Below are positions 50,086 to 59,037 of a stretch of 64,000 bases of DNA, one piece after another. The first letter of the stretch is position 1. The number at the start of each line of letters is the position of its first letter. The position numbers and the translations under genes were made by a program. Source of the DNA: Myxococcales bacterium (GTDB taxonomy: Bacteria; Myxococcota_A; Polyangia; Polyangiales; DASUME01); the NCBI GenBank assembly GCA_047601445.1, contig JASGJH010000001.1, positions 6,112,001-6,176,000 of the forward strand. The letters run 5' to 3'. The notes beneath the pieces are model-generated. The model ran no database searches, was not told the DNA's origin, and worked only from the letters and a program-made list of their open reading frames with translations.

Positions 50086-50272
50086 TGACTTCGCAGGGTA
50101 TCAAAGCGAAAGCGGTGCAGCCCAGCAAAGTGAACGAGCGAAATCCATCCCTTGCGCCTCCTCACCGATCTGTCCTGGAGGAACACGACACGCAATTGGG
50201 CTGAGTATCACAAAAGATTCGTGCGCGGTGCTTCCTTGACTGCCCAGGGTGGGAGCAACACCTTACGCTGCC

Positions 50273-51696
50273 GTGTCGAAGCCCAAAAAGACGATCCACT
50301 TTGTCTCGCTCGGATGTCCCAAGAACCGAGTCGATACCGAGGTCATGCTCGGCGTGGGTGCGGGTGAGGGCTTCAAGAATCGTGGCGGACCCCAGTCAGG
50401 CCGAAGTGATCGTCGTGAACACCTGCGGGTTCATCGGTCCGGCCAAGGAAGAGTCCATCGATACCATCCTGGAGATGGGCTCCTTCAAGGAGAGCGGCAG
50501 CTGCAAGAAGCTGGTGGTCTCGGGCTGCCTCTCGCAGCGCTATCCGGAAGAGCTCGCCAAGGAGATGCCCGAGGTGGACTACTTCTTGGGCTCGAGCGAC
50601 ATGCTCAAACTCGGCGATGTGCTGCGCGCCAACGAGAAGCACCCCCTGGAGCGCGTGCTGGTGGGCAACCCCGCGGATTACACCTTCCGCGCCACGGACC
50701 CGCGCCTGCCCTCCATGGCCACCCACAGCGCTTACGTGAAGATCGCCGAGGGTTGCTCGCGCAAGTGCAGCTTCTGCATCATCCCGAGTATGCGCGGCAC
50801 CCAGCGCTCGCGTCCGGTCGAGGACATCGTGAGCGAAGTGGAGCAGCTCGTCTCGCGCGGGACCCAGGAAATCAACCTGGTTTCCCAGGACACCATCTCC
50901 TACGGGCGCGACCTCAAGCAAGACGGGCGCAACCTGTCGCATCTGGTGCAGGCCCTGGGCGAGGTGAAGGGCCTCAAGTGGCTGCGCCTGTTCTATCTCT
51001 ATCCCGAGCGTCTCACCGAAGAGATCATCGAGCTGTTGGCGCACCACCCGAAGGTCCTGCCCTACGTGGACATGCCGCTGCAGCACGCCAGCGACCGCAT
51101 GCTCAAGCTCATGCGCCGCGGCCACGGGCCCGACCGCCAGCGCAAGCTGGTGGAGCGCATGCGCACCGAGATCCCGAACCTCACCTTCCGCACCGCTTTC
51201 ATCGTCGGCCATCCTGGGGAGACGGATGCGGACTTCGCGGAGCTGTGCGACTTCGTGAAGTGGGCCGAGTTCGACCGCGTGGGCGTGTTCAAGTACTCCC
51301 ACGAGGAAGGCACGCGCTCGGGGACGCTCGACGAGGAAGTCCCGAGCAAGACCATCGCCGCGCGCCATCGCAAGCTCATGCAGATCCAGCGCCCCATCAG
51401 CCGCAAGAAGATGCGCCGCATGGTGGGCAGCCGAGATCGAGGTCCTGGTGGAGGGCGTGAGCGACGAGAGCGAGTTCTTGCTCGAAGGTCGCCACGCGGG
51501 CCAGGCCCCGGACATCGACGGCAAGGTGTACCTCGCCAACGGGGAGGCCAAGCCCGGTGAGATCCGCAAGGCCATGGTGACCGACGCCGCCGACTACGAT
51601 CTCGTGGCGGACCTGCTGCCCCGCGAGGGGGGCGGACTCGACCGACCGCCGGGCGCCAAGCGGGTGCGCCTGCGCACGCTCAACGGGCAGGTCTGA
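50273..51696 (+). CDS. rimO: Ribosomal protein S12 methylthiotransferase, with two +1 frameshifts (near 50378 and 51432)
   Basis: SLGCPKNRVD, VNTCGFI, EGCSRKCSFC, APDIDG (TRAM domain). Confidence 0.92.
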
Positions 51697-51789: not shown

Positions 51790-52095
51790 ATGAATCCAGG
51801 CCAGCTCACGCTAGACAGCCGCATCCGGCCCTCCGACAAGACCTTGTTTCGCAACGTGGAAGGGGAGGCCGTGCTCCTCGGATTGAATGCGGGTTCCTAT
51901 TTCGGGCTCGACCCCGTGGGCACCCGCATGTGGGAGCTGATCGCCGAGCGCGGCCTCTTGCGGGACGTGGTGAGCGGCATCGTGGCCGAGTTCGAGGTCG
52001 ACGCGGCGCGCGTCGAAACCGACCTCCTTAAGCTGGTTTCCGCATTGCTGGAGAAGCAGCTGGTGGAGCTCGCTGGGTCCGGCCCGCATCCCTGA
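51790..52095 (+). CDS. PqqD-family RiPP recognition element (lasso B1-like)
   Basis: EGEAVLL...YFGLDPVGTRMWELI...EFEVD...DL pattern; about 101 aa. Confidence 0.9.
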   Translation: MNPGQLTLDSRIRPSDKTLFRNVEGEAVLLGLNAGSYFGLDPVGTRMWELIAERGLLRDVVSGIVAEFEVDAARVETDLLKLVSALLEKQLVELAGSGPHP

Positions 52096-52104
52096 GCTGG
52101 CCCC

Positions 52105-54042
52105 ATGAGCGGCATCGCGGGCATCGTGTGCAGCGGAGCGGACCCTCGACCCGGACAGGGCGCTGCGCTCGAACGAATGCTGAGGGCGCTGGAGGCCAAG
52201 GGCCCGGACGGTGCCTCGCGCTGGCAGGAAGGGCCTGCATCGCTGGGCCTCACCCTGTTTCGCAGTACGCCCGAGCAAGCGCATGAACACGGGCCGACAC
52301 AGGTCGAGCATGTGGTCGTGGTGGCCGACGCTCGGCTCGACGAGCGTACGGAGCTGCTCGATCTGCTCGAGGTGCCTGCCCATGCCCATGACGGCATCCC
52401 GGATAGTGAGCTCATCGCGCGTGCCTATTTGCGCTGGGGCGCCGAAGGCTTCGGCCGCCTGCGAGGAGATTTCGCCCTCGCACTCTGGGATCGACAGCAG
52501 CGGACGCTGTGGTGCGCGCGGGACGTGTTCGCGGTGCGGCCTTTCTACTACGCGGAACTGCCGCAGGGCTTCATGTTCGCCTCGAACTTCGAAGCGTTCC
52601 GCCAAAGCGAGCTGATCGCGGCCGCGGTGGATCCGGTCCGCGTGCACGACGCGCTCACCTGGCGCTGGCTCGAGTTCGGGGAACCGGGACGCACGTACTA
52701 TCGCGACATCATGCGCCTGCCAGCCGGTCATGTGCTGCGCTTCCAGGCTGGGCAGCTGCGCCTGCAGCGCGTGGATCTCTTGCGGCCCACGCGGGATCCG
52801 CTACCGCGGGACTCTCGCGAGCTGCCGCTGCTGTTCCGGCATCACTACAAGCGTGCGGTGGCGCGCCGCCTCAGAGCCGAGCGCCCAGTGGCCTCGATGT
52901 TGAGCGGCGGCCTCGATTCCGGAAGCGTCGTGTGCCTGGCCCGCGAGGTCTTGCGTGAGCGCGGCGGGCCGCAGCTCATCACGTGCTCGGTGTTGGGGGA
53001 TCCACCCCTCGACGGCGAGACCCCCTACGTGCGCGCCGTTCAGGCGAGCGGGGACCTTCGTTGTCACGACCTGACCTTTGCGCGCCTCCCAGAGCTCGGA
53101 CCCGTGATGAGCCGCTACTTCGAGCGCTCGCCCTGTATGCCCGTCGAGTGGGCCTACTGTCAGATGATGCTCGCCTGCTCGGTCAGCGCGCGCGAGGCGG
53201 GCGCCCGCGTCCTGCTGACCGGCGAGACAGGTGACATCGCCCTCGGCGTGGCTTGCAACCCCACACGCCGGGCGCTGCAGGAGGGCAAGGTCGTGGAGGC
53301 CTACGGGCTGCGACTGGAGGAGGCGCGCTTTGTGGGCTGGAGCGGGCGCGAGCTCATGACTTCGTGGCTCGCCGACAGCACCTGGTTCCTCCAGCAGGAC
53401 GTGCTGCAACGGGTGTCTCCTGCGTTCCACTGGGCACGCAGGAAGCGGCGCCATGCGGTCTGGAGGCGCGCGCTGCAGGCCGAGCGGCCAGAGCTCAAGT
53501 CGCTGCCGGAGCCCCTGGCTGCCGAGTTCTTGAGCCGCTTCCACGAGGTGCAGGTGGCCGCCGAGTGGCCCAATCGCGAACGCGAGGATCACTATTTCGC
53601 CAACGGAGTCGATCGCGGCATGGCCGGGGTCGGCGAGGCATACGACCGGGTCTGCAGCGCCCATGGGGTCGAGGCCCGCCACCCGATCTTGGACCGGGAT
53701 CTCGTGGAATTCTGCATGGCAGTGCCCTGGCGCGAGCGCCGGCTGGGAGGAACCAACAAGTCCCTCCTCAGGCGTGCGGAGATCCTGCCCGAGCTGCACG
53801 AGCGTCAGCGGCCCATGCCGAACGTGAACACCGAGGCGCGCCACACCATGTGTGCCCAGGTGGGACCATGGCTTGGGGACCGGCTTGCCAACGTGCAGGC
53901 GGCCTTTCAGTGGGCGACTGAGGACTACGTCAGGCAGCTCGAGCAGAGCTTCCGTGCGAGCCCTGCTCTCGGGGGAAACAGGCTCGACCAAGTGCTTGAG
54001 CTCATTGCGCTTGATGCCTGGGCGGGGCCGCGCGCGAGTTGA
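52105..54042 (+). CDS. Asparagine-synthetase-like lasso cyclase (C protein)
   Basis: MSGIAG (glutaminase Cys replaced by Ser), LSGGLDS, LLTGETGD, EARHPILDRDLVEF. Confidence 0.88.
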   Translation: MSGIAGIVCSGADPRPGQGAALERMLRALEAKGPDGASRWQEGPASLGLTLFRSTPEQAHEHGPTQVEHVVVVADARLDERTELLDLLEVPAHAHDGIPDSELIARAYLRWGAEGFGRLRGDFALALWDRQQRTLWCARDVFAVRPFYYAELPQGFMFASNFEAFRQSELIAAAVDPVRVHDALTWRWLEFGEPGRTYYRDIMRLPAGHVLRFQAGQLRLQRVDLLRPTRDPLPRDSRELPLLFRHHYKRAVARRLRAERPVASMLSGGLDSGSVVCLAREVLRERGGPQLITCSVLGDPPLDGETPYVRAVQASGDLRCHDLTFARLPELGPVMSRYFERSPCMPVEWAYCQMMLACSVSAREAGARVLLTGETGDIALGVACNPTRRALQEGKVVEAYGLRLEEARFVGWSGRELMTSWLADSTWFLQQDVLQRVSPAFHWARRKRRHAVWRRALQAERPELKSLPEPLAAEFLSRFHEVQVAAEWPNREREDHYFANGVDRGMAGVGEAYDRVCSAHGVEARHPILDRDLVEFCMAVPWRERRLGGTNKSLLRRAEILPELHERQRPMPNVNTEARHTMCAQVGPWLGDRLANVQAAFQWATEDYVRQLEQSFRASPALGGNRLDQVLELIALDAWAGPRAS

Positions 54043-54067
54043 CCCATTGCCGGGATTCCATCAAGAT
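54039..54067 (+). promoter_or_regulatory. Possible sigma70-type internal promoter for the precursor
   Basis: TTGACC-N17-CAAGAT about 70 nt upstream of the precursor start. Confidence 0.35.
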
Positions 54068-54137
54068 GTGAACGCCCGACGGGGGTCTGGCAACCAACAT
54101 CACGGGGCTGGAGCTCCCACGAACTTGGGGATGAATC

Positions 54138-54317
54138 GTGTCGAATCCGAACAACACCGTGCGCAAGTCCTACAGCGAGCCTCGTCTGGAAGAGTACGGT
54201 GCCCTGACCGATCTCACCCGCTCGTCGCTCTTGTCGATGAACAACCAAGAGAACCTGAAGACCCCCACCCAGTGTCAGATGCCGAACGGTGACCGGACCG
54301 GTCCCAAGCCCTGCTGA
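54138..54317 (+). CDS. Lasso-type RiPP precursor peptide (59 aa; absent from ORF track)
   Basis: MSNPNNTVRKSYSEPRLEEYGALTDLTR-SSLLSMNNQENLKTPTQCQMPNGDRTGPKPC; YxxPxLxxxGxxxxxT leader; GGGGA RBS; TGATG overlap with next gene. Confidence 0.9.
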   Translation: MSNPNNTVRKSYSEPRLEEYGALTDLTRSSLLSMNNQENLKTPTQCQMPNGDRTGPKPC

Positions 54318-55477
54318 TGGGCGCGTACTCGCTCGGCTCCTACGCGAGCATGCTGGCGTGCCGTACCCGCATGCCCGCCTATTTCGAGGCGCTTGAACGC
54401 ACGGTCAAGCCGGGGTCCGTTGTCCTCGACCTCGGGGCCGGATTCGGATACTTCGCGCTGCTGGCCTGTCGCTTGGGCGCGGCCCGTGTGTACGCCATCG
54501 AGCCCGCTGAGTCGATCTCCGTGGCCGCCGAGCTGGCGCGCCTGAACGGCTTTGGCGATCGCATCGTTCCCATCCGTGATAGCTCGCGCAATGTGAAGCT
54601 CCCGGAGCGCGTCGATGTGATCGTCTCGGACATCCGCGGTGCGCTCCCGACCATCGGCGGTTCGCTGCGAACCCTGATCGACGCCCGCGATCGGTTGCTC
54701 GCTCCAGGCGGTACCTTGATTCCCTGGCGTGATCGTCTGTGGGTTGCCCCGATCGACGATCGCCCTCAGTGGCAGCGCTCGGTGCGCCCGTGGGCCGTGG
54801 TAGCCGAGGCGTTCGAGCCGGCTCGTGGGCTCAACCTGACGCCCGTCGAAGAGCGCCTGGTCCACTACACTCGCTCCAGCGAGCTGCTGATCGCGTCGTT
54901 CATGGCCACGCCTCAGATCTGGGCCGAGATCGACTATCACACGAACCAGAACACCGACGTCGAGGGCGCGGTGGAGTTCCAGATTGCGGAGCGCGGCACC
55001 GTCTACACCCTGGGCATCTGGTTCGACGCGGAGCTGATGGAAGGCATCCGCTACGCGTCGGGGCCGGAGCGCGGCACCGTGTATGCGAACATGAGCCTGC
55101 CGTTGAGCCAGCCGCTGAGCGTGCAGCCGGGCGACACACTGAAAGTTCGCCTTCTCTCCAGCGACATCGGTGGGACCTATCACCTGAGCTGGTGGACCTC
55201 CCTGATCCGCGGCGGACAAACGCTGAGCTCGTTTCAGCAGAGCGACTTCTTGTCGGAGCCGCTAGTGCTCGATCGCTTCAAGCAGCGTCTGCCCAACCAC
55301 ATGCCCAAGCTTGAGCGCCGCGCGGAGATCGTGCGGCAGATTCTGGATGGCGCTCACGCAGGGCTCAGCCTCGGGCAGATCGCAGCGAAGTTGATGGAGA
55401 ACTTCCCCGACCGTTTCGAGAGCACGACCGCCGCGCTGGAGCACGCCGCCAACGCTTTCGAGCTGTTCAACGGCTGA
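54317..55477 (+). CDS. PRMT-like SAM-dependent methyltransferase
   Basis: MLxxxxRxxAY, VLDLGAGFG, VYAIE, PERVDVIVSD, RDRLLAPGGTLIP, WFDAEL. Confidence 0.8.
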   Translation: MGAYSLGSYASMLACRTRMPAYFEALERTVKPGSVVLDLGAGFGYFALLACRLGAARVYAIEPAESISVAAELARLNGFGDRIVPIRDSSRNVKLPERVDVIVSDIRGALPTIGGSLRTLIDARDRLLAPGGTLIPWRDRLWVAPIDDRPQWQRSVRPWAVVAEAFEPARGLNLTPVEERLVHYTRSSELLIASFMATPQIWAEIDYHTNQNTDVEGAVEFQIAERGTVYTLGIWFDAELMEGIRYASGPERGTVYANMSLPLSQPLSVQPGDTLKVRLLSSDIGGTYHLSWWTSLIRGGQTLSSFQQSDFLSEPLVLDRFKQRLPNHMPKLERRAEIVRQILDGAHAGLSLGQIAAKLMENFPDRFESTTAALEHAANAFELFNG

Positions 55478-55483
55478 CCGGTC

Positions 55484-56374
55484 ATGCCGACGTATTCGAT
55501 TCTGGGACTTCGGTTCGAGCTGCCCTGGAGCCTCGATCTGCCGGCAGTAGAGGAGCCGGCGGACTACCAGGTGACATTCGGCCCGGTCGAGGATGTTCCC
55601 GACGATCCTGCGATCGACTCGCCCTTGATGACGCGCAAGGGACGCGCGCTGGAGCTCTCCATGGGCGGCATCTGCCGCATGGTGGTGCCCGGCCAGGGCA
55701 CGCCCGCCCAGGTCGAGTGCTATCCCCACCGCGAGCAAAGCATCGAGGAGGTCAAGCGACAGGTCCTCGAGCACCTCATTCCGCGGCTGCTCTCACGGCA
55801 CTACCAGCTGGTGTTGCACGCGAGCTGTGCCGTGTTCGAGCACAATGCGCTCGGGTTCTTCGCTCGCTCGGGAAGCGGCAAGTCCACCATGGCGCTGGCG
55901 ATGGCGCGTGCGGGCGCCACGATTTTGGGCGACGACAGCCTGGTGCTCGATCGAGGTCCCGATGGCGCCATGGCGCGTGCGCTGTGGTCCACCGTGCGCG
56001 CCTTCAACGACAGCCTGAGCACCACGCTGGAGGTCGAGCGTCCCGACGCCGAGAGCAGCAAGATCGTGCTCACCCACGGTGAGGCGGCACGGCTTACTTT
56101 CGAGCGCGGGGCGCATCCGCTGAAGGCCCTGTATGCGCTCGAAGAGAGCGACGAGATCCGGATTCTGCCCATGAGTCCGCGCGAGGCCATGTTGGCGCTC
56201 CTGCGAGAGGCCTATCACCTCGAGTTCGACGACATGAAGGGCATGGCCGAACTGATGGCGCGAACCGAGCAACTCGGGCTCACGCGGCGCACCTTTCGGC
56301 TCGCCTATCCTCGCGATTTCGCGCGCCTGCCGGAGGTGGTCGCGCGCGTGCGCGCACATGCGGCGAGCTTGTAG
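55484..56374 (+). CDS. HPr-kinase-like peptide kinase
   Basis: VLHAS, SGSGKST, LGDD. Confidence 0.82.
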   Translation: MPTYSILGLRFELPWSLDLPAVEEPADYQVTFGPVEDVPDDPAIDSPLMTRKGRALELSMGGICRMVVPGQGTPAQVECYPHREQSIEEVKRQVLEHLIPRLLSRHYQLVLHASCAVFEHNALGFFARSGSGKSTMALAMARAGATILGDDSLVLDRGPDGAMARALWSTVRAFNDSLSTTLEVERPDAESSKIVLTHGEAARLTFERGAHPLKALYALEESDEIRILPMSPREAMLALLREAYHLEFDDMKGMAELMARTEQLGLTRRTFRLAYPRDFARLPEVVARVRAHAASL

Positions 56375-56376
56375 CG

Positions 56377-58137
56377 ATGTCCCCCCTCTACGCCCGCGCT
56401 AGAGGCCTCCTGCTCCCACGCTGGCGGCTCGTGGTCCTCGCCATCGCTTTTGCCTTTCTGTCGGCCCTCACGGACGCGGGATTCGCGATCACAGCAGGCG
56501 GCGTGGCTGGCTGGCTGTTCGACAAAGCAGGCAGCCAGTCGTCGATTGTGGCGGCCTTCGGTGTCGATCGCGGCTTCGGCCTCGTCATGGGTCTCGGCCT
56601 GATCGCCGGCCTGCGTGCTCTCGGTACGCTCGGCGCGGCCTGGGTAACCGCGCGCCTGGGCTCGGAGATCGCCCACGAGCTACGTACGGAGCTCTACGAG
56701 CGCACGGCGTTGAATGCGCTGCCCCGGGTCCTGGCCCACCACCGCGGCGAAGTCGTCTCGCGGCTCCAGGACGACGTAGAGACCATTCAGGTAACACTCA
56801 CGTACTCCGTCACCGGCATCGCGCACACCGTGCTCTCCACGTTGATGGTGGGCAGTGTGATCTTGTCGATCGATCCCTGGGTCGGTCTCTCGTGTTTCGT
56901 GGGCGCCCCGCTGGCGGCGCTGGTGGTTCGTCTGGCGAACCGCCGCTTCTACGTGCTCTATGAGCAGCTTCGCCAGGACCACGGCATGCTCATGGGACGC
57001 ATCGAAGAGATCGTGGATGCGGGGGATGTGGTGCGCAGTCTGGGCGGCGAGCGCAGGGTCATCGAGCGCTTCACCAAGCTTTCGGAGCGCGTGAAACAGG
57101 CATCGCTAGAGGTTGCGCGCACGTCCGCTTTGACCAAGCCGATACTGTCCCTGGTGGGCGCCCTCGGCCTTGGTGTGCTGTTGGTCTATTGGAACTCGGG
57201 AAATGCGCCGGCTCCTGCCGAGCAAGCCGCGCTGTTGGCCGCTGCGGCCATCTTGATTCGCCCGCTCCATGCGGTGTCGCGCTGGTACGAGGTGGTGGCC
57301 TCGACACGCAGCTCGTTCCTGCGGGTGGACGAGATTCTGCAGACCCCACGAGTGGAGCTCGCTTCGGACGAACCCACGCAGCGACCGGATGCGCAAGCCT
57401 TGCGTGCTCGGGAACTGGCGTTCGCATTCGGGGAGACGTCGGTCTTCACAGGCGTGTCTTTCGAGCTCCGGCGCGGCCAAGTGCTGGCGGTGGTGGGCCC
57501 GAGCGGTAGCGGCAAGACCACCTTGCTCAGGCTCCTCACGGGCTCACTCGAGCCTGCGACGGGTAGCGTAGAGATCGACGGCAAAACTCGGGCGGACATG
57601 GAAATGCGCAGCTACCGCCGGCATTTTGCCTGGGTCCCCCAGGAAGCGCGCTTGTTGTTCGACAGCGTGGCCGAAAACCTGCGACTCGGTCGACCCGGGG
57701 CGAGCGACCTCGAGCTTAGCCAGGCCCTGCAAGCCGCCGACTTCCCGCTTTCGGCTCAGCACTTTCCGCAAGGCCTGGAGACCAAGATCGCCGACGACGG
57801 ATCGCCGTTTTCGGTCGGGCAACGACAGCGCTTGTGCATTGCTCGCGCGCTGCTCACGCAGGCGCCTTTCTTGGTGCTAGACGAGCCCACGGCTGCGCTC
57901 GACGAACGTACAGCCGAGGAACTCCACCGAACCCTGCTCGGGTTGCGCGAACGGTTGGGCGTGTGCCTCGCGACCCATCGCTTGAGCAGCGTAGAGCAGT
58001 GCGATTGGGTGGTCGTGCTCGAGGGAGGGCGGGTGGTCGAAGAAGGGCGCCCCGCAGATCTGCGCCAGCGTGGTGACCGCTTCCGTTCGCTGTTCGCTCA
58101 GGACATCGTGCGCCTGGAGGCGGGCAAGGTCGGCTGA
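56377..58137 (+). CDS. ABC exporter (TMD+NBD), no peptidase domain
   Basis: GPSGSGKTT, FSVGQRQR, LDEPTAALD, THRL; sequence starts directly with TM helices. Confidence 0.92.
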   Translation: MSPLYARARGLLLPRWRLVVLAIAFAFLSALTDAGFAITAGGVAGWLFDKAGSQSSIVAAFGVDRGFGLVMGLGLIAGLRALGTLGAAWVTARLGSEIAHELRTELYERTALNALPRVLAHHRGEVVSRLQDDVETIQVTLTYSVTGIAHTVLSTLMVGSVILSIDPWVGLSCFVGAPLAALVVRLANRRFYVLYEQLRQDHGMLMGRIEEIVDAGDVVRSLGGERRVIERFTKLSERVKQASLEVARTSALTKPILSLVGALGLGVLLVYWNSGNAPAPAEQAALLAAAAILIRPLHAVSRWYEVVASTRSSFLRVDEILQTPRVELASDEPTQRPDAQALRARELAFAFGETSVFTGVSFELRRGQVLAVVGPSGSGKTTLLRLLTGSLEPATGSVEIDGKTRADMEMRSYRRHFAWVPQEARLLFDSVAENLRLGRPGASDLELSQALQAADFPLSAQHFPQGLETKIADDGSPFSVGQRQRLCIARALLTQAPFLVLDEPTAALDERTAEELHRTLLGLRERLGVCLATHRLSSVEQCDWVVVLEGGRVVEEGRPADLRQRGDRFRSLFAQDIVRLEAGKVG

Positions 58138-58170: not shown

Positions 58171-59037
58171 TCAGGAGCCGATCAGCTCGAACTCGTTCTC
58201 ATCGTCGTGACTCTCTTGAGCATCGGCGGTGACCTGCGCACGGCGCTCGGCTCGCAGCTTGTTGACGCGGGCCACGTCGACCTTGAGTCGGGGCAATAGG
58301 GTCCGATTCACCAGCTCGAGCTTGGTCACCATGGGGCGCGTAAGTGGACGCTGCTTACGTACCATCTCGTAGAACTCTTCGAACACCGTGGCGATGCTCG
58401 CTTCTACGCTCGCGTTTTGGGCGCGCGCGCGCTGGGTCCGATGCTCCGGCCGCACTGCTTCCAGCGCGGCGCTGAGGTCCCCACCGCCAACGAACGAGAG
58501 CGCCTCACGCACGGTGCGCTCAGGCTCCTCGAGCATCGTGTCGTAGGCCCAGAGGCGGAGCGGGTACTTGCGGCGCAGACCGTCGACCAGCAGGCCGTAG
58601 TTGCAGGTCCACCACTCGAATACCGGGTCGAGTCGGGCCGGCGGCTCGAAGTTGGGGTGCTTCTGACGACGGGAGTCATCCTCCATCTTCCACATGCGTC
58701 GGCGCGACTCCTCGTACTCGCGGAAGTCGCGCATGCTGGCGATCACGCGTCCGAGGTAGCGCGGGTTCGTCCGCACCACGCCTGGCACGAAGATCTTCAC
58801 CACGTGCTTCTCGAACTGCGCGGGATCGAGCGCTCGACCCGTGGTCGGATCGAGCTCGGCCTTACCGTAGACCCCGCGCCGGAGCTTCGACTCGTAGAAC
58901 CCTTCCGGATTCGCCGCGCCGATGCTCTCCTTCCACTGACCAGGAAAGCGCTCGCCGAGATAGGGTAGCCCGGCCGCGATGAGGACTTGCATCCACATCG
59001 ACGTTCCAGAGCGTTTGGTGCCGGTGACCACGATCAC
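58171..59037 (-). CDS. Sulfotransferase-like P-loop protein
   Basis: N-terminal IVVTGTKRSGTSM resembles the PAPS-binding loop; NPEGFYE; YDTMLEEP. Confidence 0.6.
   Translation of the reverse strand: MIVVTGTKRSGTSMWMQVLIAAGLPYLGERFPGQWKESIGAANPEGFYESKLRRGVYGKAELDPTTGRALDPAQFEKHVVKIFVPGVVRTNPRYLGRVIASMRDFREYEESRRRMWKMEDDSRRQKHPNFEPPARLDPVFEWWTCNYGLLVDGLRRKYPLRLWAYDTMLEEPERTVREALSFVGGGDLSAALEAVRPEHRTQRARAQNASVEASIATVFEEFYEMVRKQRPLTRPMVTKLELVNRTLLPRLKVDVARVNKLRAERRAQVTADAQESHDDENEFELIGS

Follow-up and report, generated by a model that had tools for sequence, protein, structure and literature searches.

A lasso peptide operon lacking its own B2 peptidase in a Myxococcales genome that encodes a single, distant B2

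The operon described here, at positions 51790 to 58137 of the window (the whole 64,000-nucleotide stretch of Myxococcales DNA that was analyzed), is probably a working lasso operon of an uncharacterised subfamily that has lost its own leader peptidase (B2) and relies on the single B2 encoded ∼224 kb away: we give this reading a probability of roughly 0.6. A trans-acting B2 is the best explanation because B2-less clusters recur and because the genomes checked that contain them all keep a B2 elsewhere. Judged from its sequence, the operon does not represent a new RiPP class: its precursor has a canonical lasso leader, and the RRE and the cyclase match lasso-specific models (NF033536 and NF033535, the cyclase below threshold). 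The cluster is part of a widespread, apparently uncharacterised subfamily with the composition PqqD-(B2)-C-A-K-MT, where MT is a methyltransferase.

The ORF listing, together with Pfam/NCBIfam scans, bears out the original prediction of six co-oriented, tightly packed genes, all of them on the + strand; a possible accessory gene follows on the − strand.

51790..52095, +: PqqD-family RRE / B1 (PF05402, E 2.4e-13; NF033536 lasso_PqqD, 3.1e-14)
52105..54042, +: lasso cyclase C, Asn-synthetase-like, 645 aa (NF033535, PF00733, GATase_7)
54138..54317, +: precursor A, 59 aa, MSNPNNTVRKSYSEPRLEEYGALTDLTRSSLLSMNNQENLKTPTQCQMPNGDRTGPKPC (ORF with GTG start, motif scan)
54317..55477, +: PRMT-fold SAM methyltransferase (PDB sequence search, AF2 model, Foldseek)
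55484..56374, +: HprK-like lasso-peptide kinase K, 296 aa (TIGR04352 at 1e-5 and TIGR04355, both weak)
56377..58137, +: ABC exporter D with fused transmembrane and ATPase domains (PF00664, PF00005)
58171..59037, −: sulfotransferase-like protein, possible accessory gene (ESM Atlas clusters)

Gaps along the operon measure 9, 95, −1, 6 and 2 bp, which is too little for a B2 gene (∼450–500 bp), just as had been claimed. The exporter aligns over its full length to MsbA/CydDC-type exporters (ABC_membrane plus ABC_tran), and the Pfam/NCBIfam scans found neither a C39 nor any other peptidase domain in it, again as expected from the earlier reading. No peptidase families were found among the genes flanking the operon. 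PF13471 has no match above noise in the window: the only candidate, at genome position 6145894 (E 0.32), contains an internal stop and was rejected. The RRE scores 50.6 bits against PF05402 (cut-off 23.4 bits); its longest ORF runs from 51739, the likely true start being the ATG at 51790, and a metagenomic homologue in locus L202 begins at the equivalent Met.

The cyclase matches PF00733 (E 1.4e-36) and, as its best NCBIfam model, NF033535 (300 bits over residues 1–563, below the 525-bit cut-off); against our own cyclase HMM it scores 542 bits over its full length. Its N-terminus, MSGIAG, has Ser where the amidotransferase has Cys, and the SGGLDS PP-loop is present. It sits on a long branch in the cyclase tree, and the single protein used as a query against the genome contigs returned no relatives. 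In its closest relative anywhere, a likewise B2-less metagenomic cluster with a 69% identical cyclase, PqqD stops 8 bp before the cyclase start and both genes are open. Cyclase N-termini (M/V-S-G-I-V/A-G) are alike in B2-bearing and B2-less clusters, and for this reason the idea that the Ntn-like N-terminal domain stands in for B2 was rejected.

The precursor ORF has a GTG start, with a Shine–Dalgarno-like run (GGGGA) 6 nt upstream, and its stop overlaps the methyltransferase start (TGATG). The leader, residues 1–28, matches the canonical lasso motif YxxPxLx3Gx5Tx exactly (Y12, P15, L17, G21 and T27, the last at position −2), and in 18 of 23 sources (the window, L012, L013 and 20 kinase loci) the cores are likewise preceded by it. 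According to excerpts of PMC10368454, Thr(−2) and YxxPxL serve B1/B2 recognition in known systems. The predicted core comprises the 31 residues 29–59 (nt 54222–54314), with Glu at position 10, K13-T14, Cys18 and Cys31, and ends in GPKPC. Glu10 is the first acidic residue past the predicted cut and falls outside the 7–9 residues given for known lasso rings in excerpts of PMC8498205. A leader motif scan recovered 68 precursors from 56 of 80 methyltransferase-type (MT-type) loci: the first acid stands at position 9 in 37 of these, at position 10 in 17 and at position 8 in 12. A K-T/S motif is found in 53 of the 68, usually C-terminal and far from the ring acid, and the E-N-L-K stretch of our precursor corresponds to it. 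For this family the core is atypical in its length, its internal K-T and its acid at 10.

The genome-wide search for PF13471 that accompanied the original prediction as a check has now been run: the 9.5 Mb genome holds exactly one intact B2, and PF13471, NF033537 and our own B2 profile each return one real match.

G000:C1:6394019-6394507, ∼224 kb from the operon: only B2 in the genome (PF13471, NF033537, own B2 profile)

This protein scores 93.8 bits against NF033537 (cut-off 33), and in a 23-row B2 alignment neither its Cys110 nor its His145 column varies. A weak second transglutaminase match at 5.27 Mb lies out of frame within a Wzy_C gene and was rejected. The distant B2 adjoins its own PqqD and an ABC-2 transporter; profile and motif scans of the locus revealed no cyclase and no precursor motif, and the nearest B2 to it is the G005 copy, which sits in a B2-C-A-K cluster. 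Because it comes with its own PqqD, this B2 may be what is left of a third cluster and not a dedicated enzyme shared between clusters. The same genome contains another B2-less lasso cluster (PqqD-C-A-K), ∼100 kb upstream of the operon. Structure prediction of the window RRE with the precursor and the distant B2 gave a median score of 0.39, against 0.09 for the best control (116 of 157 solved complexes reach the mark, as do 2 of 215 mismatched pairs, and a pass at or below 0.60 counts as weak); runs share at least 52% of contacts and partner pLDDT is at least 73. The model thus lends weak backing to an assembly of the three.

In the species-genome collection the methyltransferase has 253 relatives, and the methyltransferase–kinase pair occurs in cyanobacteria, Acidobacteriota, Gemmatimonadota, Chloroflexota and Pseudomonadota. 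At 56 evaluable MT-type loci, B2 is adjacent in 30, nearby in nine and absent within 10 kb in 17 (B2 was called in the 80 loci with an own-built HMM; Pfam confirms locus absence in five of the 17). The absence of B2 therefore recurs among homologous loci; B2 in every homologous cluster, the outcome that was to have counted against the original prediction, is not what is seen. B2-less MT-type loci include three multi-species clades, and the forms span three phyla. Within the genus, ten genomes carry one PF13471 gene each (two in one genome), and of the 11 PqqD/cyclase clusters counted six lack B2 and five encode it. Parts are often gained and lost here, and PqqD-B2-A-K loci without a cyclase exist. 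In the cyclase tree, a B2-bearing orthologue groups as sister to the B2-less copies of two species (a quick tree was used for cyclases and FastTree for B2, PqqD and the methyltransferase; branching orders are provisional).

Genomes with B2-less clusters retain a B2 elsewhere in 10 of 10 cases checked (G000, G002, G005, G007, G058 and G410–G414; related genomes among these are not independent samples), compared with a base rate of 83 in the 401 genomes sampled from the phylum. A single intact B2, recurring and persistent B2-less sister clusters, and a B2 elsewhere in every genome checked all support the earlier proposal that the protease acts in trans. In lasso systems generally, B2 is considered a core cluster gene acting with B1 and C, whereas this operon has none; the literature listings and abstracts searched, with subscription-only papers outside their scope, do not describe any lasso cluster dependent on a B2 encoded far away.

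Could the leader instead be cut by an unrelated housekeeping or periplasmic protease, or by some unrecognised activity of the cluster proteins, with the distant B2 uninvolved? Other RiPP classes do rely on unclustered general proteases, and a lasso cyclase can act without B. In G089 (97% complete), PF13471 has no match despite the presence of a kinase-PqqD locus, but that locus showed no cyclase. Against this explanation stand the B1/B2 recognition features retained in the leader, the presence of a B2 in all 10 genomes checked that have B2-less cyclase clusters (the base rate is given above), cyclase N-termini that are the same with or without a cluster B2, and the lack of peptidase families in or beside the operon. 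We consider it unlikely.

A comparably low probability attaches to decay, that is, to the operon being a non-productive remnant from which B2 was deleted and whose other genes are out of use. The two methyltransferase-bearing clusters among the 20 phylum kinase loci (L064 and L069) have B2 between PqqD and C, from which it follows that loss in this operon is derived and could be recent. The heavy turnover of parts in the genus and the atypical core point in the same direction, as does the neighbouring rimO, broken up across three reading frames, a sign that genes decay or that assembly indels arise nearby. However, none of the six ORFs is disrupted, their starts and stops overlap or nearly abut, which suggests translational coupling, and the catalytic motifs of the kinase, the cyclase and B2 are retained. 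The PqqD–cyclase junction is the same in the relative with the 69% identical cyclase, and multi-species clades of B2-less forms are seen in three phyla.

That the Asn-synthetase-like enzyme performs non-lasso chemistry needing no leader peptidase, for example a Glu10–Lys13 side-chain isopeptide on the uncleaved precursor, would suit the missing B2, an acid at 10 rather than 7–9 with Lys three residues on, and the cyclase's low NF033535 score and long branch, but is very improbable: ordinary PqqD-B2-C clusters contain cyclases of this profile family that resemble it at the N-terminus and are accompanied by the same leader motif; NF033535 is an ‘exception’-type model that takes its name from cyanobacteria, and a protein from a distant phylum can be expected to score below its threshold; and since the K-T/S motif is mostly C-terminal, far from the ring acid, a conserved Glu–Lys crosslink is unlikely. 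The suggestions of different chemistry and a new RiPP type, and of an isopeptide at E-N-L-K, are thus not supported: the leader follows the lasso textbook, the cyclase is an ordinary lasso cyclase of full length, and the stretch is a K-T/S motif rather than an obvious isopeptide site.

An alignment of 26 sequences shows no variation at the kinase residues H112, G132-K133-S134 and D150-D151, which agree with the H-G-G-G-K-S-D-D motif of BsfK and known lasso kinases, as given in excerpts of PMC10368454. The precomputed Pfam label of the family is PF27840. Characterised lasso kinases of the paeninodin type target a C-terminal Ser, whereas this core ends in Cys; BsfK targets Ser3, which makes other sites possible (PMC10368454, in excerpt). 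The substrate of these kinases is the linear precursor, and BsfK is accelerated by the RRE (excerpts of PMC8498205 and PMC10368454).

The methyltransferase retrieves PRMT10/4.2 at 8e-23 in a PDB sequence search, as well as PRMT6 and PRMT1, and its AF2 model (pLDDT 90.2) aligns to PRMT6, PRMT10 and PRMT1 in Foldseek with E about 1e-27 and TM 0.65–0.71. The fold in common with these eukaryotic type-I enzymes, a Rossmann domain plus β-barrel, spans residues ∼10–310, and an extra three-helix domain occupies residues ∼334–384; the latter might be an RRE, but hhalign against our own PqqD alignment gave only 12% probability over 27 columns. In PRMTs, the loops named ‘double-E’ and ‘T-H-W’ bind arginine. 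The two Glu are replaced here by D105 and Gly (HMMER alignments to PRMT10 and PRMT6), and T-H-W becomes T-V-Y in the PRMT10 alignment, the only printed one that reaches the stretch. Both the D/G and the V-Y substitutions are conserved across the bacterial family, whose motif is VSDLRGxLP. The original description as PRMT-like therefore stands for the fold, by sequence and Foldseek, and fails for the arginine-binding residues. With an Asp…Arg loop in place of the arginine-binding acidic loop, the methylation target could be phosphate, carboxylate or lysine. Among the loci examined the MT-type enzyme is always paired with the kinase.

If the distant B2 does act in trans, as we favour, the cluster RRE would bind the YxxPxL...T(−2) leader, a motif seen in the sequence, and the HprK-like kinase would phosphorylate a Ser/Thr of the linear precursor, our best guess being Thr14 of N-L-K-T. 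The methyltransferase, with its extra helical domain, would then modify a non-arginine site in or near N-L-K-T. Recruited via the leader-bound RRE, the trans-encoded B2 Cys protease would cut after Arg28, upon which the cyclase would link the Ser1 N-terminal amine to Glu10, giving a 10-residue ring (9 residues if cleavage shifts by one). A Cys18–Cys31 disulfide may form in the tail, and the product would leave through the ABC transporter. Several observations speak against this reading: Glu10 outside 7–9, the core ending in Cys, the distant B2's own PqqD, and B2 in L064 and L069.

Among the closest comparisons are systems for phosphorylated lasso peptides that use HprK-like kinases: paeninodin (Paenibacillus), ThcoK/SyanK and Bradymonas sediminis bsf. 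Like the operon they have a split B1 (PqqD), an Asn-synthetase-like cyclase and an ABC exporter, and their kinases share its H / G-K-S / D-D catalytic motif (PMC10368454, in excerpt). In contrast, their B2 lies beside B1, their kinases target a C-terminal Ser (Ser3 for BsfK), and none has a PRMT-fold methyltransferase. Lassomycin-type clusters (StspM) also use a SAM methyltransferase that tailors the linear precursor before folding; StspM, however, is a peptide C-terminal carboxyl O-methyltransferase (both points from excerpts of PMC8498205), whereas the enzyme here has a type-I PRMT fold in which the charge of the substrate loop is altered, carries an additional helical domain at its C-terminus and has a kinase partner. 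The combination of cluster-specific modifying enzymes with a protease encoded elsewhere, as proposed here, is found in class III lanthipeptide-type pathways, one instance of RiPP biosynthesis with a leader protease gene located outside the cluster.

A wider scheme, possible though doubtful, is that of a hub and spokes: one genomic B2 would serve several clusters that lack B2 but encode an RRE and a cyclase apiece, and the MT-type spokes would make a kind of lasso peptide not seen before, whose rings could reach 10 residues and whose K-T/S motif would be phosphorylated before the PRMT-fold enzyme methylates it. A shared B2, if real, would imply a protease that recognises a generic leader–RRE complex rather than a cluster-specific partner, which would aid combinatorial lasso engineering; a natural 10-residue ring, likewise, would extend the known range. 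Genome mining that expects adjacent B and C would miss B2-less clusters, ∼30% of the subfamily (17 of 56 evaluable loci), and such a cluster expressed alone in another host would fail. The listings and abstracts covered (subscription-only papers lay outside scope) contain no relevant account of a PRMT-like methyltransferase in lasso or RiPP clusters, and no published description of its pairing with a kinase as tailoring enzymes.

The sulfotransferase-like gene is convergent with the operon and lies 34 bp past the exporter stop. The protein has no Pfam match at E 0.01, and no homologue turned up in the 80 MT-type loci searched. Its nearest ESM Atlas clusters score 0.98, with PF13469 (Sulfotransfer_3) in 11–15% of members, and it is a possible member of the cluster.

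The cluster consists of six genes, all on the forward strand and separated in the ORF listing by gaps of 9, 95, -1, 6 and 2 bp:

51739/51790-52095, +, PqqD-family RRE (PF05402, 2.4e-13; NF033536 lasso PqqD, 3.1e-14)
52105-54042, +, Asn-synthetase-like cyclase, 645 aa
54138-54317, +, precursor ORF, 59 aa, with lasso leader motif
54317-55477, +, methyltransferase, 386 aa, PRMT fold
55484-56374, +, HprK-related protein, 296 aa, with lasso kinase motif
56377-58137, +, ABC exporter with fused membrane and ATPase domains (Pfam/NCBIfam scans)

The original prediction of a six-gene operon that lacks, and has no space for, the transglutaminase-like Cys protease of leader removal (B2) is confirmed by the ORFs, the domain scans and these gaps. 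Its further suggestion of a new RiPP type is not borne out: the leader of the precursor, MSNPNNTVRKSYSEPRLEEYGALTDLTRSSLLSMNNQENLKTPTQCQMPNGDRTGPKPC, matches the lasso consensus YxxPxLx3Gx5Tx at every defined position and places Thr27 at -2, leaving a predicted core of 31 residues from Ser29. Judged by its sequence, the operon is a lasso cluster and not a new RiPP class. A scan for the same motif returned a candidate precursor in 18 of 23 sources (the window, L012, L013 and 20 of the phylum's kinase loci), together with 68 precursors from 56 of the 80 loci collected by relatives of the methyltransferase (MT-type loci).

If the Thr(-2) rule sets the cut, the core has its first acidic residue at position 10. 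Among the 68 MT-type precursors it lies at position 8 in 12, 9 in 37, 10 in 17 and 11 in one, with none in the remaining one. Natural lasso rings have 7-9 residues according to PMC8498205, and a 10-residue ring was obtained with engineered fusilassin (PMC13352647). MT-type precursors with the acid at position 10 would either form 10-residue rings or be cut at a site shifted by one residue.

The genome (G000; 9.5 Mb, single contig) encodes exactly one B2, at G000:C1:6394019-6394507, according to each of three independent models: Transglut_core3 (Pfam PF13471), NCBIfam NF033537 and an in-house profile of 23 B2 sequences. It lies outside the window cluster, ∼224 kb downstream, scores 93.8 bits on NF033537 against a cut-off of 33, and retains the Cys and His found in every sequence of the B2 alignment. 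The gene follows its own PqqD, with which it forms a pair at G000:C1 ∼6393760-6394525, and genes for an ABC ATPase and an ABC-2 permease; neither a cyclase nor the precursor motif was found at this locus. A recurrent weak match at 5.27 Mb, considered as a second B2, is out of frame within an O-antigen-ligase gene and is spurious. A second lasso cluster without B2, in the order PqqD-cyclase-precursor-kinase, precedes the window cluster by ∼100 kb, and in it the stop codon of PqqD overlaps the start of the cyclase. The genome therefore holds two B2-less clusters and one PqqD-B2 pair without a cluster. The second cluster (G000:C1 ∼6063877-6067500; L013 8877-12496) has an HprK-like kinase and a core with Trp first, Glu at position 8 and Ser-His at the end; among its orthologues B2 is present in two same-genus genomes and absent from one other.

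We favor, with a probability of roughly 0.6, standard lasso maturation in which the distant pair supplies B2 in trans. This was one branch of the original prediction, and it gains from the two B2-less clusters and the single genomic B2. Complex prediction with the window RRE, the precursor and the distant B2 yielded a median score of 0.39 versus 0.09 for the best control. Of 157 solved complexes 116 reach the score mark, as do 2 of 215 mismatched pairs, and passes of ≤0.60 count as weak. At least 52% of contacts are shared between runs, and partner pLDDT is at least 73; the model weakly supports such an assembly.

The absence of B2 is recurrent. An alignment scan of a species-genome collection with the methyltransferase returned 253 relatives, from which 80 loci were kept, in cyanobacteria, Acidobacteriota, Gemmatimonadota, Chloroflexota, Pseudomonadota (including Erythrobacter donghaensis DSM 16220) and a Labilithrix MAG. 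The Erythrobacter strain is a cultured member of this family, and its locus (L174) has the order cyclase-kinase-methyltransferase...PqqD-B2. Twenty of the 80 have no cyclase in the locus and four are truncated upstream of it. Among the 56 evaluable loci, B2 is directly upstream of the cyclase in 30 and elsewhere within 10 kb in nine, and is missing from the locus in 17. PqqD abuts the cyclase (gap 0-227 bp) in 14 of these 17, which in a quick methyltransferase tree form three multi-species clades (four Gemmatimonadota, six Acidobacteriota, three cyanobacteria) plus singletons. Pfam searches of five genomes with such loci bore out the absence of B2 from the locus and found B2 elsewhere in all five. 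Overall, B2 occurs elsewhere in 10/10 checked genomes with B2-less cyclase clusters, compared with a base rate of 83/401 genomes in the phylum sample; the ten are related to one another, so the comparison does not amount to a formal test. In G089, a genome with a kinase-PqqD locus and no detected cyclase, B2 was not found anywhere.

Within the phylum, the kinase profile matches 119 of 401 sampled genomes. In the best 20 of many kinase loci, B2 stands beside the kinase or PqqD in 17; a cyclase lies within 10 kb in 13, 12 of them with B2. Two of the 20, L064 and L069, are the sole ones with a methyltransferase homologue (order PqqD-B2-cyclase-precursor-kinase-methyltransferase); since both carry B2, its loss from the window cluster is a derived state. 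All ten genomes of the genus have a PF13471 gene, one each and two in one genome. Of 11 PqqD/cyclase clusters counted there, five have B2 (L093, L094, L095, L096, L101) and six are without it (the window, L013, L102, L103, L105, L107), L105 being a 3-kb contig and L107 having its PqqD 6 kb distant. A quick tree of the cyclases groups the B2-less copies from G000 and its congener G005 as sisters to a B2-bearing orthologue in a third genome (G008). Among B2 sequences, the distant B2 is sister to that of a B2-cyclase-precursor-kinase cluster in G005.

Another protease might remove the leader, which we regard as improbable; the Pfam/NCBIfam scans found no peptidase domain in the exporter (56377-58137), and domain scans found no peptidase family in the neighboring genes. 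The lasso exporter McjD likewise lacks a C39 domain. Nor is it likely that the window cluster is a decaying remnant: the kinase retains His112, Gly132-Lys133-Ser134 and Asp150-Asp151, invariant among 26 family members, and in the closest relative, whose cyclase (69% identical) lies on a metagenome contig of 2 kb, the PqqD gene ends 8 bp short of the cyclase start and neither reading frame is interrupted. Non-lasso chemistry, the other branch of the original prediction, is very improbable. Among NCBIfam models the cyclase best matches the lasso isopeptide cyclase NF033535, with a score of 300 bits that falls under the cut-off of 525. What is new here is the proposed dependence on a distant B2, recurring across phyla, and the pairing of a kinase with a PRMT-fold methyltransferase; the titles and abstracts searched describe neither a lasso cluster depending on a distant B2 nor such a pair.

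Mutagenesis of BsfK and further lasso kinases has shown that the motif retained by the kinase is important (PMC10368454). Characterized lasso kinases act on the linear precursor at a C-terminal Ser (PMC8498205), and a Bradymonas enzyme, sped up by the RRE, targets Ser3 (PMC10368454). The window core, in contrast, ends in Cys, so the phosphorylation site must differ from a C-terminal Ser.

The methyltransferase has, by its predicted structure, a true type-I PRMT fold. A PDB sequence search ranked PRMT10/4.2 first (8e-23), closely followed by PRMT6 and PRMT1; the AlphaFold model (mean pLDDT 90.2) matches PRMT6/10/1 in Foldseek at E ∼1e-27 and TM 0.65-0.71, and has an additional three-helix domain (residues ∼334-384). 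However, the PRMT substrate-loop Glu pair is replaced by Asp105 and Gly (HMMER alignments), the H-W of the PRMT10 T-H-W stretch is V-Y (PRMT10 alignment), and the family consensus reads VSDLRGxLP. In PRMTs the corresponding double-E and T-H-W loops bind the arginine. Given the altered residues, canonical arginine methylation is unlikely.

The family numbers more than 1000 homologues of ∼380 aa, and in the 80 MT-type loci the methyltransferase nearly always follows the kinase. One 10.8-kb ENA contig carries both a 75% identical methyltransferase (P0151) and a 66% identical kinase (P0123). Of the 68 MT-type precursors, 53 contain a [K/R][T/S] pair, which mostly sits in the last 2-4 residues. The window core has N-L-K-T at positions 11-14, a string that is terminal in several family members, followed by 17 further residues including Cys18 and Cys31. 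We infer that kinase and methyltransferase act on or around the K-T/S motif, candidates for the methylated atom being a lysine nitrogen, the phosphate or a carboxylate.

Methyltransferase homologues also occur without a cyclase or kinase at the same locus (L135, L144, L149, L152, L154, L161, L180, L182-L184), mainly in Chloroflexota, and PqqD directly follows in L154, L180 and L183; the family may thus serve other RiPP contexts too. In the genus, L097-L100 (genomes G009, G004, G003, G001) are PqqD-B2-precursor-kinase loci with no cyclase at the expected place and cores that begin F-T-G-x-H-D, their acid being residue 6. The window cyclase found no match at 1e-20 in G004 and G009 (89-90% complete) and only N-terminal AsnB-like matches in G001 and G003. 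The products may be leader-cleaved, phosphorylated linear peptides. A separate Asn-synthetase-like clade (L064 15557-18733, L104, L106, L108, L024) scores 313-363 bits on the in-house cyclase profile; no PqqD, kinase or precursor motif was found near its members, which are probably not lasso cyclases.

The cluster is flanked upstream by rimO and downstream by a sulfotransferase-like gene on the opposite strand, a gene without a Pfam match that, to judge from its translation, looks to encode a secreted protein, and a gene for a Ser/Thr kinase. The sulfotransferase-like protein (58171-59037, -; 288 aa) has no Pfam match; in the ESM Atlas its closest clusters, at a score of 0.98, come mostly from Myxococcota, with Sulfotransfer_3 in 11-15% of members. 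No homologue was seen in the 80 MT-type loci. Some Firmicutes lasso clusters are flanked by sulfotransferase genes, according to PMC8498205. Directly upstream of the cluster, rimO (50249-51696, +) is distributed among three frames. Its N-terminus shares the frame of position 50249, 50301-51560 encodes the radical-SAM core (TIGR01125, 405 bits, profile positions 29-371 of 432 only), and the TRAM domain falls in 51448-51696 (PF18693, 1.4e-11). The gene is either a pseudogene or the product of assembly indel errors.
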